From contig JAYTUV010000055.1 in NCBI GenBank assembly GCA_043744395.1, positions 62,247 to 126,246 of the forward strand: a stretch of DNA of 64,000 nucleotides, read 5' to 3'. Positions 41,943-45,801 of the stretch are shown one piece after another. The notes beneath the pieces were generated by a model, which saw nothing but the letters and a program-made list of their open reading frames with translations, did no database searches and was not told where the DNA came from. The position numbers and the translations under genes are program-made. The number at the start of each line of letters is the position of its first letter. The stretch's first letter is position 1. This stretch comes from Aestuariivirga sp. (GTDB lineage: Bacteria > Pseudomonadota > Alphaproteobacteria > Rhizobiales > Aestuariivirgaceae).

Positions 41943-43634
41943 CTAGTGTTTGGTGGGTAGGTTTTTGATAACTGCACGTAGCTGGCGGATCTGCGCACGA
42001 TCCAATTCTTTGATTGGCTCTGCGATATCTTTATATGGGCGCAAATCAGGATGAAGCAAATGCGTGTTGTCTCTGATTTTTCCATATCGCCAGCCATCAA
42101 GCAGCCGGTCGATCATCCATCCACGGTGTTCAACTTCAGCTAATTTTTCCAGCGTAGTTGGATCATCAATGGCCGACCAATCACCCTTTAAAATTTCTGA
42201 TTCAGGCTTTGCCATGTAACCGGTAGACAACAATTTTGTAACAGCACGGGCCGCCGCAGTTCGGTTCGACAATCTGTATGTTTGCGCAAGTTTTGCCCAT
42301 GGGCGCATCGCCGCACTATCCCCACCGCGCGTCGTTTTCGCATCCAAACGATAAGCCTCGTGGAACGAACGCGCCAGAGTTTCAACCCAATCCGAAAGAT
42401 AATTTGGACCGTCATCAATTGCAATAATCTGCGTGGCAGGATCATTATTCTGAGTTGAGATAAACAGCTGTTTCGTTGAATCGCCGGCGTTCTGCAAAAC
42501 GTAAATGGGAACAAGCCAACGACCCAAAATCTGACTGCGACGACGCAAAGCCAAAGCTGCAACCACCCCGCGCGCAGCATCTTCATAACTAATGACGACT
42601 GCCGAAACAGGAGTGGATTTATCAAGTGCCACCATCTGCCCATCAGAAGCGATGTCCTGTAATTTTGGCAATTCAATAAAGTCTAATTTTACAAAACTGC
42701 CATCAAGCATGGCCGGATATCGGTAGGTGATTTCTGTTTGTGCTTCAAGTTTCTGGTCAGTTAAAATGCTAATCCTCGGAATATCCAACCCGAGATAAGG
42801 CGATAGTCGGCAGAACTTTTCAATGACGGCCAATGAAAAACCGCTCCACCCAATCACAACTAAATGGACGCGCTTCAAACCCCGACGTTTTGCATCATCG
42901 GAAAGCGGATGACGCAGCAATAATTTGCTCGCTGCAATCTGACCGGAATTAACCGCCACCACTTCAACAGACTCGGATGGGCTGCCAAAAGCTTCATTCC
43001 TGTTAAGTTCAGCAACCAGCGCAGCATTTTGCAAATTCACTTCAATCAACGCTTCATCTGTTCTCCCGGCCATGAGCTTAATGATGGTTTCAAGGCTTTC
43101 TAAACTTTGCGAGTCTGAATTGAGCTTCAAGTTGATTGACTTGGCCTTTGCCACGCCAGCCTTGCTCAGTGTATCTTGCGAAATTGTTTCATCTTCAAGA
43201 TGAAAGTCTGCTGTCATATGTGACGCGTTTATAACAACAACATTTCGCCCCGCTAATGGCTCATGTTGCGCACCAATCACGACATGATGACCAGACAATT
43301 TTCGCAACCGTCTGTCGTTCCACCACGCGTCAATTTGTGATCCAAATAATCGGAACAATCCAAACAGCGTAATGCAAGGTGCCACCCAACGCGCAACCAT
43401 TAACCACCAATTGCGAATGCCTTCGCCGCCCGGTTCTGGCATTGAAAAAAACAAAGAAAATGTGCGCAGTGCATTATTCAAAATCGCGAAGGCAGCTGTC
43501 TCCCCACTGCAGGCTTTTGTCACCGGGCATTCCAGACTAAAGCCATAATAACCAATGCCAAAAATGAATACGACAAACGGCAGCGCATACCTGAAGGGCA
43601 GCTCAGATCCAATTTCCGCCAATTTAGCTCGCAT
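41943..43634 (-). CDS. membrane protein with channel-like 2-TM N-terminus, two RCK/TrkA-N-like segments and a C-terminal RyR-repeat domain
   Basis: TM segments 'FRYALPFVVFIFGIGYYGFSL' and 'WWLMVARWVAPCITLFGLFRLF'. Rossmann-like 'HHVVIGAQ' and 'RVHLVVIGWSGFSLAV'. RyR-type halves 'LARSFHEAYRL...RPWAKLAQTYRLSNRTAAARAVTKLLSTGY' and 'LAEVEHRGWMIDRLLDGWRYGKIRDNTHLLHPDLRPYKDIAEPIKELDRAQI'. The start at 43634 (MRAKLAEIG) is chosen to avoid overlap with the divergent TIR gene and is uncertain. Confidence 0.65.
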   Translation of the reverse strand: MRAKLAEIGSELPFRYALPFVVFIFGIGYYGFSLECPVTKACSGETAAFAILNNALRTFSLFFSMPEPGGEGIRNWWLMVARWVAPCITLFGLFRLFGSQIDAWWNDRRLRKLSGHHVVIGAQHEPLAGRNVVVINASHMTADFHLEDETISQDTLSKAGVAKAKSINLKLNSDSQSLESLETIIKLMAGRTDEALIEVNLQNAALVAELNRNEAFGSPSESVEVVAVNSGQIAASKLLLRHPLSDDAKRRGLKRVHLVVIGWSGFSLAVIEKFCRLSPYLGLDIPRISILTDQKLEAQTEITYRYPAMLDGSFVKLDFIELPKLQDIASDGQMVALDKSTPVSAVVISYEDAARGVVAALALRRRSQILGRWLVPIYVLQNAGDSTKQLFISTQNNDPATQIIAIDDGPNYLSDWVETLARSFHEAYRLDAKTTRGGDSAAMRPWAKLAQTYRLSNRTAAARAVTKLLSTGYMAKPESEILKGDWSAIDDPTTLEKLAEVEHRGWMIDRLLDGWRYGKIRDNTHLLHPDLRPYKDIAEPIKELDRAQIRQLRAVIKNLPTKH

Positions 43635-43734
43635 AAAACCTACTCCTGAACCAAGACTTGCCGCAATAATAGTGTTGCACAATATGAAAGAACACTGAAA
43701 TATAGCAATCTCCTCAAGACGAGTGACGAGACTG

Positions 43735-45801
43735 ATGGCGCGCAAGAAGATTGACCGAAAAGATGACCGTAAGACCAGAGTTTTCTTGTCATACTCACGA
43801 AAAGATTTAGGCTTTGCCGAGTTTCTCAAAGGCGAACTCGAACAAGCCGGCTATCAACCAAGTCTTGATAAAACCGATATTGCCCCCGGCGAAGCCTGGC
43901 AAGACCGACTGGGCAAACTGATTCAGGAGGCCGATGCAATCGTGTTTTGTTTAAGCCCCCATTCTGCCGTATCCGCAATTTGCGGTTGGGAAGTGGAAGC
44001 GGCCGCAAAACTTGGTAAGCGCATTGTTCCTGCCGTCGTTGATTTCGTCGATCCGACGTCTCTACCAGAAACCTTAACAAAATTGAATTTCATTTTCTTT
44101 GCAGACACCAGTTTTGAAGAAGCCTTCACCAATCTGCAGTCGGCACTGAATACCAACTTGGCATGGGTTCGGCTGCATACGAGGCTTGGCGAATTGGCAC
44201 TAGAATGGCAAGCCCGCAACAATTCAACATCACAACTTTTGTTTGGTCGTTCTCTAAGTGATGCCGAAATTTGGTCTGCCAAACGTCCTAGCGATGCCGA
44301 ATTACCTACACCCCTACAATTGCAATATATCGCCGCAAGCCGGAGTGCGGCAAGCGGAAGGCAGCGCCTTGGTCTGTTTGCAGCACTCGCTGCTGCAACC
44401 GTAGCTATTGCATTATTCATATGGGGTCTCTTCAATCAATTCGATGCGATCGACCAAAAAGAAAAAGCGCAAGCCGTCGCAAACGCGGCGATCAATGCGG
44501 CAGAATCTATTTCCGTTGATGTTGTGACTGACCTTTCCTCAAGAAGTGGCGTTCCACCTCAAGCAATCCAATCCGTTCTTGAAATAACCGCAAAGATGCA
44601 AAACGATTTAATCAATTCTGGCGCAATAGCTCCGGCAATCAAGGCTTCACTTGTGAGCACTTATATGCAGCTGGCCCTCATACATAAATCGCAAGGACAT
44701 GTTGAAGAAGCACTCGCCAATGCTACTAAAGCGACCCAACAAGCAGATGACGTTAAAAAAATAATTGACGAATTACCCAGCAAAACACCAGATGACATGC
44801 GCGTTCAAAATGTGAATTTAACCAACCGCGCAGCAAGCTATTCGGTTTTGGGCGACATTCAAAGTAATATGAATGAGGACTACGCAAAATCCAAAGCCTC
44901 TTATGAAATAGAAATCGAATCCGCCAAACTCATCACTGAGGACTATGCGGGAAAAACAAATCGCGACACACGAATAGCCATCGGTCAGATGAGCCTTGGT
45001 GACTCGCAATTTATGTTGAACGAAACTGAACAAGCGCTTTCAACAGCCATACTGGCCAATGAAACGTTCAAAAGCCTCCTGCGCGAAAAGCCATTGGCCA
45101 AAAATGAATATAAAGTTGATCAATGCAATTATCCGATTGCCAAGGTCAACGATGCTGCAACACGAAAACAGTATTTAAGTTTTGAAACTGATATTTTGGA
45201 CTTGATTGGCAGAATTCTCAATCGCCAGAAACACTTTGTTGTAGCAGAAAAATATTTATGTGAAGCACTCAAAAACGCAATCGCAAACTCCGCAGATAGG
45301 CCAGACGATCTCGCGGCAAAAAGAGAAGTCAACCAAGTGCGAAAAACATTTGCGATCAACCTACATGAACAAGGCGGCGCAAAAAATGCGAGGGCGTTTA
45401 TGTTAGCTGATGCTCAGCAGAAGCTGGCAAAAGAACTCTACGACCTCAATCAAAGCAACACGCTGTTGCTCGATGACTATGCAGTAGCATTGCTCCTGAA
45501 AGCAAATTACGCCAGCCCATCAAGTGCTCCAGAATTCTTTGCAACACAATATAAGGCTTATGCCGAATTAAGACTGAAGTCGGCGATCCAAAATCCAACT
45601 GATCCCGTTGTCTTGGAGCAACTCGTCGTGGCGTATGAAATTCTTCTTGAAAACAATCTCAGAGCGGAGGAAGCCGACACGGCGAATTTACGAGGATTCA
45701 TAACCGCAATGGAAAAGCTCTATTCCAGTTCCGTCTCATCGAAACCAGAACGAGCCGAGATTGCAAAAAAGGCCCTCGCTTCAATCGTTCCAACCCCCTA
45801 A
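43735..45801 (+). CDS. TIR-domain protein with single TM helix and about 450-aa helical-repeat (TPR-like) C-terminal domain
   Basis: TIR_2-like 'RVFLSYSRKDLGFAEFLKGELEQAGYQPSLDKTDIAPGEAWQDRLGKLIQEADAIVFCLSPHSAVSAICGWEVEAA'. TM 'LGLFAALAAATVAIALFIWGLF' (nt 44368-44433). GTG at 43723 is an alternative start. Confidence 0.8.
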   Translation: MARKKIDRKDDRKTRVFLSYSRKDLGFAEFLKGELEQAGYQPSLDKTDIAPGEAWQDRLGKLIQEADAIVFCLSPHSAVSAICGWEVEAAAKLGKRIVPAVVDFVDPTSLPETLTKLNFIFFADTSFEEAFTNLQSALNTNLAWVRLHTRLGELALEWQARNNSTSQLLFGRSLSDAEIWSAKRPSDAELPTPLQLQYIAASRSAASGRQRLGLFAALAAATVAIALFIWGLFNQFDAIDQKEKAQAVANAAINAAESISVDVVTDLSSRSGVPPQAIQSVLEITAKMQNDLINSGAIAPAIKASLVSTYMQLALIHKSQGHVEEALANATKATQQADDVKKIIDELPSKTPDDMRVQNVNLTNRAASYSVLGDIQSNMNEDYAKSKASYEIEIESAKLITEDYAGKTNRDTRIAIGQMSLGDSQFMLNETEQALSTAILANETFKSLLREKPLAKNEYKVDQCNYPIAKVNDAATRKQYLSFETDILDLIGRILNRQKHFVVAEKYLCEALKNAIANSADRPDDLAAKREVNQVRKTFAINLHEQGGAKNARAFMLADAQQKLAKELYDLNQSNTLLLDDYAVALLLKANYASPSSAPEFFATQYKAYAELRLKSAIQNPTDPVVLEQLVVAYEILLENNLRAEEADTANLRGFITAMEKLYSSSVSSKPERAEIAKKALASIVPTP

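Follow-up and report, generated by a model that had tools for sequence, protein, structure and literature searches.

Does a bacterial TIR enzyme signal to a ryanodine-receptor-like channel protein encoded at its side? The question is raised by two divergent genes in a 64,000-nucleotide stretch of the Aestuariivirga sp. assembly GCA_043744395.1 (contig JAYTUV010000055.1, positions 62,247 to 126,246; the window, in what follows), one for a TIR protein with a transmembrane (TM) helix and one for a channel-like membrane protein that carries RCK-type domains and ends in a RyR domain, here called the RyR/RCK protein. Bacteria, plants and animals all rely on TIR-made ADP-ribose (ADPR) signals in immunity, and new receivers of these signals are still being described. 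We give a probability of about one half to the reading that TIR and RyR/RCK proteins are a signal-and-receiver pair of the Thoeris kind, set in a larger kinase/protease cassette that spans the envelope. The pairing of TIR and RyR genes recurs in unrelated bacteria, and the pair is therefore probably a bacterial counterpart of the animal link between cyclic ADP-ribose (cADPR) and the ryanodine receptor.

The two proteins of the pair

The C-terminal region of the RyR/RCK protein is a RyR domain. Pfam RyR (PF02026) matches amino acids (aa) 495-553 with E=5.5e-13 and 49.4 bits against a cut-off of 27.4, which disposes of the concern, voiced in the initial annotation of the window, that the RyR-like region might fail profile detection (residue numbers for this protein follow a 564-aa translation; the true protein has 563 aa, so 1 is to be subtracted). 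In a phmmer search of the PDB, aa 486-559 align to repeats of RyR1, RyR2 and RyR3 with E-values down to 4e-18, and in a Foldseek search with the structural model described below, the helical pair at aa 415-559 matches human RyR3 Repeat12 (R12) over 174-191 columns at E ~2e-4, the matched crystal structures including complexes with ATP, ADP and dantrolene. Repeat 1 carries the motif FHEAY...RPW..L..TYR..NR, in which H426 and W447 are invariant among 70 diverse family members and Y429 is found in 67 of them; with these conserved residues, the modelled helical pair and the Repeat12 match, the two-half RyR repeat described in the initial annotation is borne out. Repeat 2 has H504, W507, H529 and D546, which are conserved in 69, 70, 62 and 67 of the 70 members, respectively. 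The first repeat keeps H426, Y429 and W447, but its second His is missing and the Asp is replaced by Asn; judged by these residues, the domain is made up of one intact and one degenerate pocket.

What such a pocket might hold is suggested by phage proteins with a RyR domain, for which 2'cADPR, 3'cADPR and cADPR are nanomolar ligands or substrates of cleavage (PMC13232231; 10.64898/2026.06.04.730250), most of the tested homologues binding without cleaving (PMC13232231). The ligand residues are H75, W78, H100 and D117 in the phage protein RyDEP (PMC13232231), and H129/W132, H154/K147 and K170/D171 in the phage RyR Tad gp68 (10.64898/2026.06.04.730250). We mapped the equivalence of the pockets through the shared RyR motif, not by direct alignment to the phage proteins. 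A product of the TIR enzyme would be a credible ligand for the RyR domain, because the phage proteins bind these signals through residues that are near-invariant in the RyR/RCK family.

The remainder of the protein resembles an RCK-gated channel. An AlphaFold2 model of the monomer, built from a shallow alignment of 15 sequences (mean predicted local distance difference test score, pLDDT, 74; predicted template modelling score, pTM, 0.71), reaches a pLDDT of 80-93 in the cytoplasmic domains and of 38-60 in the membrane part. Hydropathy places TM helices at aa 17-37 and 79-97, and the model has TM1 at 15-36, a short helix at 48-65, a PEPGGEG loop and a long TM2 at 77-113, followed by Rossmann domains at 118-250 and 258-410 and by the RyR helical pair. 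Hydropathy and model thus agree with the earlier description of two TM helices around a segment without the TVGYG K+ filter: in the RyR/RCK protein no TVGYG is found and the loop reads FSMPEPGGEG. The pore-loop residues are variable among the 70 family members as well, and a K+-selective filter is therefore excluded. The positions that flank the loop are conserved (R58, T59, L62, F63, N76, L79, A82, R83, P87), and on its modelled architecture the protein may form a pore.

Among PDB structures, the best Foldseek matches are to the multi-ligand-gated K+ channel GsuK, full-length chains included (E 6e-8 to 3e-7; 6e-8 to 6e-9 for the best matches when a search with the model of homologue P0010 is taken in), followed by the TrkA ring, Slo1, MthK and the CASTOR ring, with the RCK rings of GsuK, TrkA and MthK spanning E-values from 6e-8 to 1e-4. 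The window protein has no Pfam TrkA_N match. Its Rossmann domain is nonetheless, on alignment and predicted fold, homologous to TrkA_N, because the model matches these rings and aligned relatives pass the TrkA_N threshold (homologues P0010 and P0013, at 37-40% identity, with 35-46 bits).

The TIR protein matches Pfam TIR_2 with E=6.9e-23. All 53 aligned TIR domains, the partners of distant RyR homologues included, share its glutamate E86, which aligns to the conserved Glu of a TLR TIR domain. In NADase TIRs this Glu is catalytic, as established from SARM1, AbTir and ThsB, and E86 is the presumed catalytic residue here. The helical C-terminal half of the protein, ~450 aa long, gives weak TPR matches in the window and TPR_12, TPR_1 and TPR_2 matches in orthologues; the likely topology has the TIR domain in the cytoplasm and the TPR-like part in the periplasm. 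Distant relatives of this TIR-TM-TPR protein stand alone, with none of the other cassette genes, in loci L014 and L015. The first of these, from a metagenome-assembled genome (MAG), holds two paralogous copies 6 kb apart (2155-4206 and 10001-12100) with no RyR, protease or kinase partners, and the TIR-TM-TPR family is broader than the cassette because such stand-alone copies exist.

Recurrence of the pairing across lineages

By an HMMER scan, the RyR/RCK family comprises 1098 clusters at 50% identity (E<=1e-30); a profile search with the 70-member alignment in a word-indexed protein collection, which does not reach the wider family, added no new homologue. Gene context was read in a small census of 22 loci (14 genome, 8 metagenome), chosen by the pattern DRxLDGWR[YF]G, and one extra locus; grouped at <50% identity, they amount to ~11 lineages. 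In four of these, the Hyphomicrobiales clade of the window being one, a TIR gene lies at most three genes from the RyR/RCK gene, and four TIR architectures are represented. A TIR_2-TM-TPR gene diverges from a TrkA_N-RyR gene in L024 and L031 (28% identity). In L025, the gene for a 261-aa soluble TIR_2 protein is directly upstream of the RyR gene on the same strand, the classic two-gene layout. RyR, SLOG-like TM protein, MASE8-TIR_2 and TIR_2 genes all run in one direction in L033, and in L034 genes for ThsB_TIR and TIR_2 diverge from those for RyR and a SLOG-like TM protein. The TIR-adjacent RyR proteins share <35% identity between lineages, the distant ones 24-31%, and the differing TIR architectures therefore point to independent recruitments.

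A TIR profile run over 558 kb of loci found, in the RyR-containing loci, no TIR gene farther than three genes from the RyR gene (~0.5 Mb of flanks). Roughly estimated, the chance of at least four hits in nine informative lineages is ~1e-9, given a frequency of about one TIR gene per 3000 genes that was assumed, not computed. The two families are thus associated across genomes, as the initial annotation had supposed they might be. Its proposal that the RyR/RCK protein is the effector of the TIR enzyme gains from this association and from the profile detection of the RyR domain, and loses from the absence of a TIR gene in three cassettes (L002, L020, L026) to which we return below. A scan of viral contigs returned no relative.

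Several other genes keep company with the family. Both loci with the distant TIR-TPR/RyR pair have caspase (Peptidase_C14) genes close by (L024 12934-16346; L031 11023-13458), and L024 has a trypsin gene as well; secreted or regulated proteases thus accompany the TIR/RyR pair in two unrelated lineages. Giant nSTAND1 NTPases with WD40 or TPR repeats and DUF4062-like N-termini adjoin RyR genes in three further lineages (L027, at 8876-11488 and 15141-20024; L029, at 5033-16531; L032, at 6779-14945). The RyR proteins of L027 and L029 have no TM helices; L027 has a SLOG gene (Pfam LSDAT_prok) that runs into the start of its RyR gene, and PP2C, PrsW and vWA genes lie upstream in L029. Three tandem TrkA_N-RyR paralogues occupy the short contig L039 (3-4764). 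An archaeal RyR/RCK homologue (L028, 9607-13268, from a Thermoplasmatota MAG) lies beside a 199-aa stand-alone SLOG-like domain and a calcineurin-like phosphoesterase, with no TIR gene within 10 kb.

In homologues of 758 aa and in most family members of ~800 aa, the RyR domain is followed by an additional α/β domain whose motifs are GH[RN], (S/T)xLAPGxD and PGGTxE (aa 576-758 of P0010, L004 10001-12277); the window protein is without it. An iterative profile finds the same domain in separate neighbouring genes in L028 (11577-12176), L029, L033 and L034, and in the last two (L033 8741-10909, L034 8815-10995) it makes up the N-terminus of a protein of 722-726 aa that has TM helices at its C-terminal end. 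Run on full proteins of the 758-aa type, Pfam returned nothing for this domain, while Pfam searches of single members gave weak matches to YAcAr/SLOG (0.003) and DprA (0.05), in one member each. Against the PDB, its profile matches DprA alone, weakly (E=0.26), on the SGLAxGxD motif; hhalign aligns it with bona fide LSDAT_prok in the GGTA[DE] motif alone, at 3.7% probability; and in a Foldseek search with the full P0010 model, RCK matches swamp the list. We tentatively regard it, on these motifs, as DprA/SLOG-like. Fused or encoded next door, SLOG-like domains place the RyR/RCK family in neighbourhoods of ADPR/nucleotide signalling; if the assignment is correct, the family would have two known classes of ADPR-signal sensor.

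The cassette and its intergenic element

Within the Hyphomicrobiales, the pair is part of a conserved block of 5-6 genes, in which a run of FHA-like-TM-Trypsin_2, Trypsin, META and TIR-TM-TPR genes has the kinase gene on one side and the RyR gene on the other (Table 1 gives the coordinates in the window). The initial annotation had treated TIR and RyR genes as a unit; the pairing holds, and the unit is larger than the pair, being a cassette with two serine proteases, both presumably periplasmic, and a Ser/Thr kinase. The cassette is found in at least three sets of flanking genes (GMC oxidoreductase/deaminases; DCD/DUF525/YccF; LplA/DUF892 with FGGY/DAO), with RyR identities of 37-98%, and every copy has the kinase. 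Most of these loci are MAG or metagenome contigs; the window is most like MAGs of Aestuariivirga or other Hyphomicrobiales, and its best genome locus has 76% protein identity. Between the TIR and trypsin genes most cassettes have the META gene (L003 6051-6377, L004 7515-7862), which is absent from the window and from its 98% twin L001.

Table 1. Features of the TIR/RyR locus; positions are those of the window
Feature	Position	Strand	Description
RyR/RCK channel-like protein	41943..43634	-	563 aa; 2TM + re-entrant loop, tandem RCK, two-repeat R12-like RyR domain
RyR domain	41961..42395	-	Repeat 1 aa 415-475, partly degenerate; repeat 2 aa 486-559, intact site
Two Rossmann/RCK-type domains	42408..43286	-	aa 118-250 and 258-410; from model, Foldseek and TrkA_N matches of homologues
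Membrane part of RyR/RCK protein	43299..43589	-	TM1 aa 17-37, short helix 48-65, PEPGGEG loop 66-76, TM2 77-113
Divergent intergenic region	43635..43734		100 bp
Conserved 34-bp element	43670..43703		TAGTGTTGC-N7-GA-N3-AACACTGAAATAT; inverted repeat AGTGTT-N14-AACACT
TIR-TM-TPR-like protein	43735..45801	+	688 aa; ATG at 43735
TIR domain	43780-44136	+	aa 16-134; Pfam TIR_2
Codon of E86	43990..43992	+	TIR glutamate in motif ICGWEVE; codon checked
TM helix of TIR protein	44368-44424	+	aa 212-230; hydropathy
Secreted trypsin-family serine protease	45801..46694	+	Pfam Trypsin E=1.5e-54; signal-peptide-like N-terminus
FHA-like domain-TM-Trypsin_2 protease	46707..48446	+	Trypsin_2 E=3.6e-16; TM aa 133-151; start 12 nt past trypsin gene
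Ser/Thr protein kinase	48447..50327	-	Helical N-terminal region; Pfam Pkinase E=5e-32; abuts and converges on protease operon

Open reading frame calls and start codons confirm that the RyR/RCK and TIR genes diverge, as first described, from a region of exactly 100 bp (43635-43734). The start of the RyR/RCK gene, an ATG at 43632-43634 on the minus strand, is set by the N-terminus MRAKLAEIG that all homologues have in common. The stop of the TIR gene and the ATG of the trypsin gene overlap as TAATG at 45799-45803, and the His, Asp and GDSGGP motifs are legible in the trypsin translation. The FHA call on the second protease is weak (N-terminus, NCBIfam EspM, E=5e-4); profile comparison of this N-terminus with the PDB gave two matches in all, both of them FHA domains and both weak (E=0.26 and 1.5).

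In the otherwise diverged alignment of spacers, the 34-bp element is an invariant block. Its exact pattern occurs in eight related loci, L002 with no TIR gene among them, always ~36 bp upstream of the RyR start, and once in the window against 0.08 occurrences expected. From its conservation and position, the element is probably an operator or promoter of the RyR gene. A scan of 41.7-50.7 kb for sigma-70 promoters and terminators found no more sites than in shuffled sequence, and none in the intergenic region.

The surroundings of the cassette are those of an ordinary chromosome. No integrase, tRNA or defence genes occur in the flanks examined, so we rejected an origin from a mobile element or defence island; GC content is only slightly below that upstream, and the locus looks vertically inherited. 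Upstream in the window are two tandem genes of the cytidine/dCMP-deaminase fold (37902-38863; MafB19-deam-like by Pfam in orthologous loci), which are conserved beside an ABC transporter in relatives. Beyond the cassette, the genes at 51199-59935 encode a hybrid histidine kinase that combines PAS, receiver and Hpt domains, a sigma-54 activator and functions of polysaccharide biosynthesis (a sugar transferase, a pyruvyl transferase and a flippase), again an ordinary chromosomal context. In the lineage with 758-aa homologues, a HigB-like toxin/HTH_3 antitoxin pair lies ~6 kb from the cassette (L004 18350-18939).

Proposed mechanism, alternatives and known systems

In the mechanism that we propose, the TIR protein is held in the inner membrane, its enzyme domain facing the cytoplasm and its TPR-like domain the periplasm. 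A trigger from the periplasm, plausibly received through the TPR-like ectodomain, the two active-looking trypsin-like proteases and the kinase/FHA-like pair, would cause the TIR domains to cluster and to turn NAD+ into an ADPR-derived signal such as 2'cADPR, 3'cADPR or cADPR. The signal would bind the pocket formed by H504, W507, H529 and D546 in the C-terminal R12-like RyR domain. The RyR/RCK protein itself would be the subunit of a GsuK-type channel, presumably a tetramer, each subunit having two TM helices around a re-entrant loop and a pair of RCK domains. A signal bound at the edge of the RCK gating ring would open a pore, probably not K+-selective, and so change ion flux or membrane potential (depolarisation), the outcome being either defence or envelope signalling. 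Of this scheme, the analysis shows the domain identities, the fold, the conserved residues and the recurrent linkage of the genes; NADase or cyclase activity, ligand, gating, tetramer, periplasmic topology, trigger and outcome are inferred. Abortive infection, which the initial annotation proposed as a speculation, is possible and draws no support from the context, as the locus lies among housekeeping genes and looks inherited by descent.

A more specific claim, that the locus encodes a host-side bacterial RyR-domain receptor in which an R12-type domain on a GsuK-like RCK channel is gated directly by the product of the neighbouring TIR enzyme, we hold to be a serious possibility that falls somewhat short of even odds. 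If it is true, the animal cADPR/ryanodine-receptor link would descend from, or be mirrored by, a prokaryotic TIR-to-channel circuit; the phage proteins RyDEP and RyR Tad would be decoys derived from a host receptor; and in the Hyphomicrobiales the circuit would be connected to sensory parts that face the periplasm (TPR-like ectodomain, two trypsin-like proteases, FHA-like domain and kinase), not to a classical cytoplasmic phage sensor.

Several observations weigh against a signal-and-receiver pair. A compact operon of TIR and effector genes is seen neither in the window nor in its Hyphomicrobiales clade, where the genes diverge (they are co-directional in L025 and L033), and the flanks consist of housekeeping genes (sugar metabolism, ABC transport, deaminases, two-component and polysaccharide genes), not of a defence island. 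PADLOC, which has no model for the RyR protein, gives only weak ThsB-like TIR matches. The variable loop and the low confidence of the TM model leave channel activity less than assured, and the window protein has a degenerate first GxGxxG motif. Five other RyR/RCK lineages have no TIR gene nearby. Within the clade itself, three cassettes from two sub-lineages (L002 3539-5810, L020 9500-12277, L026 4571-7343) have all the other genes but cleanly lack the TIR gene, of which no remnant is left in the 55-220 bp that separate META from RyR; the clade has therefore seen at least two losses or gains of this gene. The three keep the RyR ligand residues and the operator-like element, and with channel and pocket retained, the channel is therefore not strictly dependent on a neighbouring TIR gene.

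TIR-less cassettes are best explained if the channel is a general sensor of adenine nucleotides or NAD(H) that serves the kinase/protease cassette, with the TIR protein an optional member that acts alone, by NAD+ depletion or as a scaffold, and affects the channel at most indirectly through NAD+/ADPR levels. We consider this unlikely, if still a contender. In the Hyphomicrobiales, the genes that regularly accompany the RyR gene are those for the two proteases and the kinase, the TIR gene being the one that is missing in L002, L020 and L026; the operator-like element is found with the RyR gene also where there is no TIR gene; and the housekeeping context suits a general sensor better than a defence system. 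By the titles of their PDB entries, GsuK RCK domains bind NAD+ and ADP and RyR3 R12 binds ATP and ADP, a range of ligands that counts for a general sensor and against a dedicated receiver. A general sensor leaves unexplained, however, why soluble TIR_2, MASE8-TIR and ThsB_TIR genes are found beside distant RyR/RCK homologues that have no cassette, and why the RyR ligand residues are those that phage proteins use for glycocyclic ADPR (gcADPR).

The same residues admit another view, in which the RyR domain is a RyDEP-like enzyme or sponge that hydrolyses or sequesters gcADPR at the membrane and thereby sets a threshold for the TIR signal or ends it, the effector being elsewhere, for example in the proteases or the SLOG-like proteins. 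The equivalents of the catalytic His/Asp dyad of RyDEP, H504 and D546, are indeed conserved, and the separate SLOG-like TM protein of L033 and L034 could be such an effector. Yet the phage homologues that carry this dyad mostly only bind, the fusion of a sponge to a 2TM/tandem-RCK channel scaffold would go unexplained, and the RyR/RCK protein is the sole partner in the two-gene TIR operon of L025; we therefore think this view improbable. That the adjacency is meaningless synteny, inherited in one alphaproteobacterial clade, is most improbable of all: most paired loci do come from related Hyphomicrobiales MAGs, but the block moves intact among three sets of flanking genes, and in three further lineages, at 24-31% RyR identity, RyR genes are again paired with TIR genes, and these are not orthologous.

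Returning to the signal-and-receiver pair, its nearest relatives among known systems are the Thoeris systems, whose membrane effectors include Macro-TM in type II, DUF2270 in type V, SLATT in type VII and, in type X, the 'ion channel' ThsK (10.64898/2025.12.03.692087); for the latter, the source gives a 'predicted ion channel' and an unknown signal (10.64898/2025.12.03.692087). As in Thoeris, a TIR gene with the presumed catalytic Glu adjoins the gene of a membrane protein whose cytoplasmic domain, by analogy, would be able to bind ADPR-derived signals, and L025 is a plain two-gene, same-strand operon. Unlike in Thoeris, the sensor is an R12-like RyR domain on a GsuK-type tandem-RCK channel (ThsK being compared here by its description), the TIR protein is membrane-anchored with a large TPR-like ectodomain, and the pair sits within a kinase/protease cassette among housekeeping genes. 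The NCBIfam model for ThcB4 of Thoeris type III scores 34 bits against a cut-off of 220, and a tblastn search of plasmids with a type X TIR, made to find the type X effector, led to a type II (Macro) operon. We file the locus as one that works like Thoeris and is not a member of a named type, because in the Hyphomicrobiales lineage it is not a compact co-directional operon and it does not lie in a defence island, two hallmarks of these systems.

With RCK-gated K+ channels of the GsuK/MthK/TrkA type, the RyR/RCK protein as modelled shares two TM helices, a re-entrant helix and loop, and two RCK Rossmann domains per subunit. It differs from these in having a PEPGGEG loop, variable in the family, in place of TVGYG and an added C-terminal RyR domain, often with a DprA/SLOG-like domain in relatives, and the window protein has lost the first dinucleotide-binding motif. 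The likeness to animal ryanodine receptors lies in a homologous tandem RyR repeat (Repeat12/Repeat34; E ~1e-17 by sequence) on a cation-channel scaffold, and in the association with an NAD-derived second messenger, which in animals is made by CD38 or by the TIR domain of SARM1. The pores are unrelated, that of the animal receptors belonging to the 6TM RyR/IP3R superfamily and the predicted one here to a 2TM RCK channel, and we know of no proof that cADPR binds directly to R12 of an animal RyR. With the phage proteins RyDEP and RyR Tad gp68, the window protein has in common PF02026 and the same His, Trp, His and Asp residues (PMC13232231; 10.64898/2026.06.04.730250). Those proteins are small soluble homodimers that destroy or sequester a host signal, whereas the RyR unit here is an intramolecular pair of repeats at the C-terminus of a channel-like host membrane protein beside a TIR gene.

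In the literature searched, whose coverage is incomplete, we found no description of a TIR/RyR-channel module, and an earlier one may exist elsewhere. The terms RyR, PF02026 and TrkA are absent from the text of the Thoeris survey and from the supplements searched (10.64898/2025.12.03.692087), and a cellular channel that has a RyR domain and adjoins TIR genes is described in neither of the RyR preprints (PMC13232231; 10.64898/2026.06.04.730250). Binding of TIR signals by RyR domains was shown in mid-2026, in phage counter-defence proteins only, and both preprints raise, as an unresolved question, whether RyR channels sense cADPR-type molecules through this domain (PMC13232231; 10.64898/2026.06.04.730250). 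A cellular protein that joins RyR domain and channel scaffold, with TIR genes next door in several unrelated lineages, would be the host receptor that is missing so far, would suggest an origin for the phage sponges and would offer a small, tractable bacterial model for the gating of RyR-domain channels. The kinase/protease cassette, finally, hints that the trigger of this TIR pathway comes from the periplasmic side, and in the literature covered characterised Thoeris systems have no such feature.

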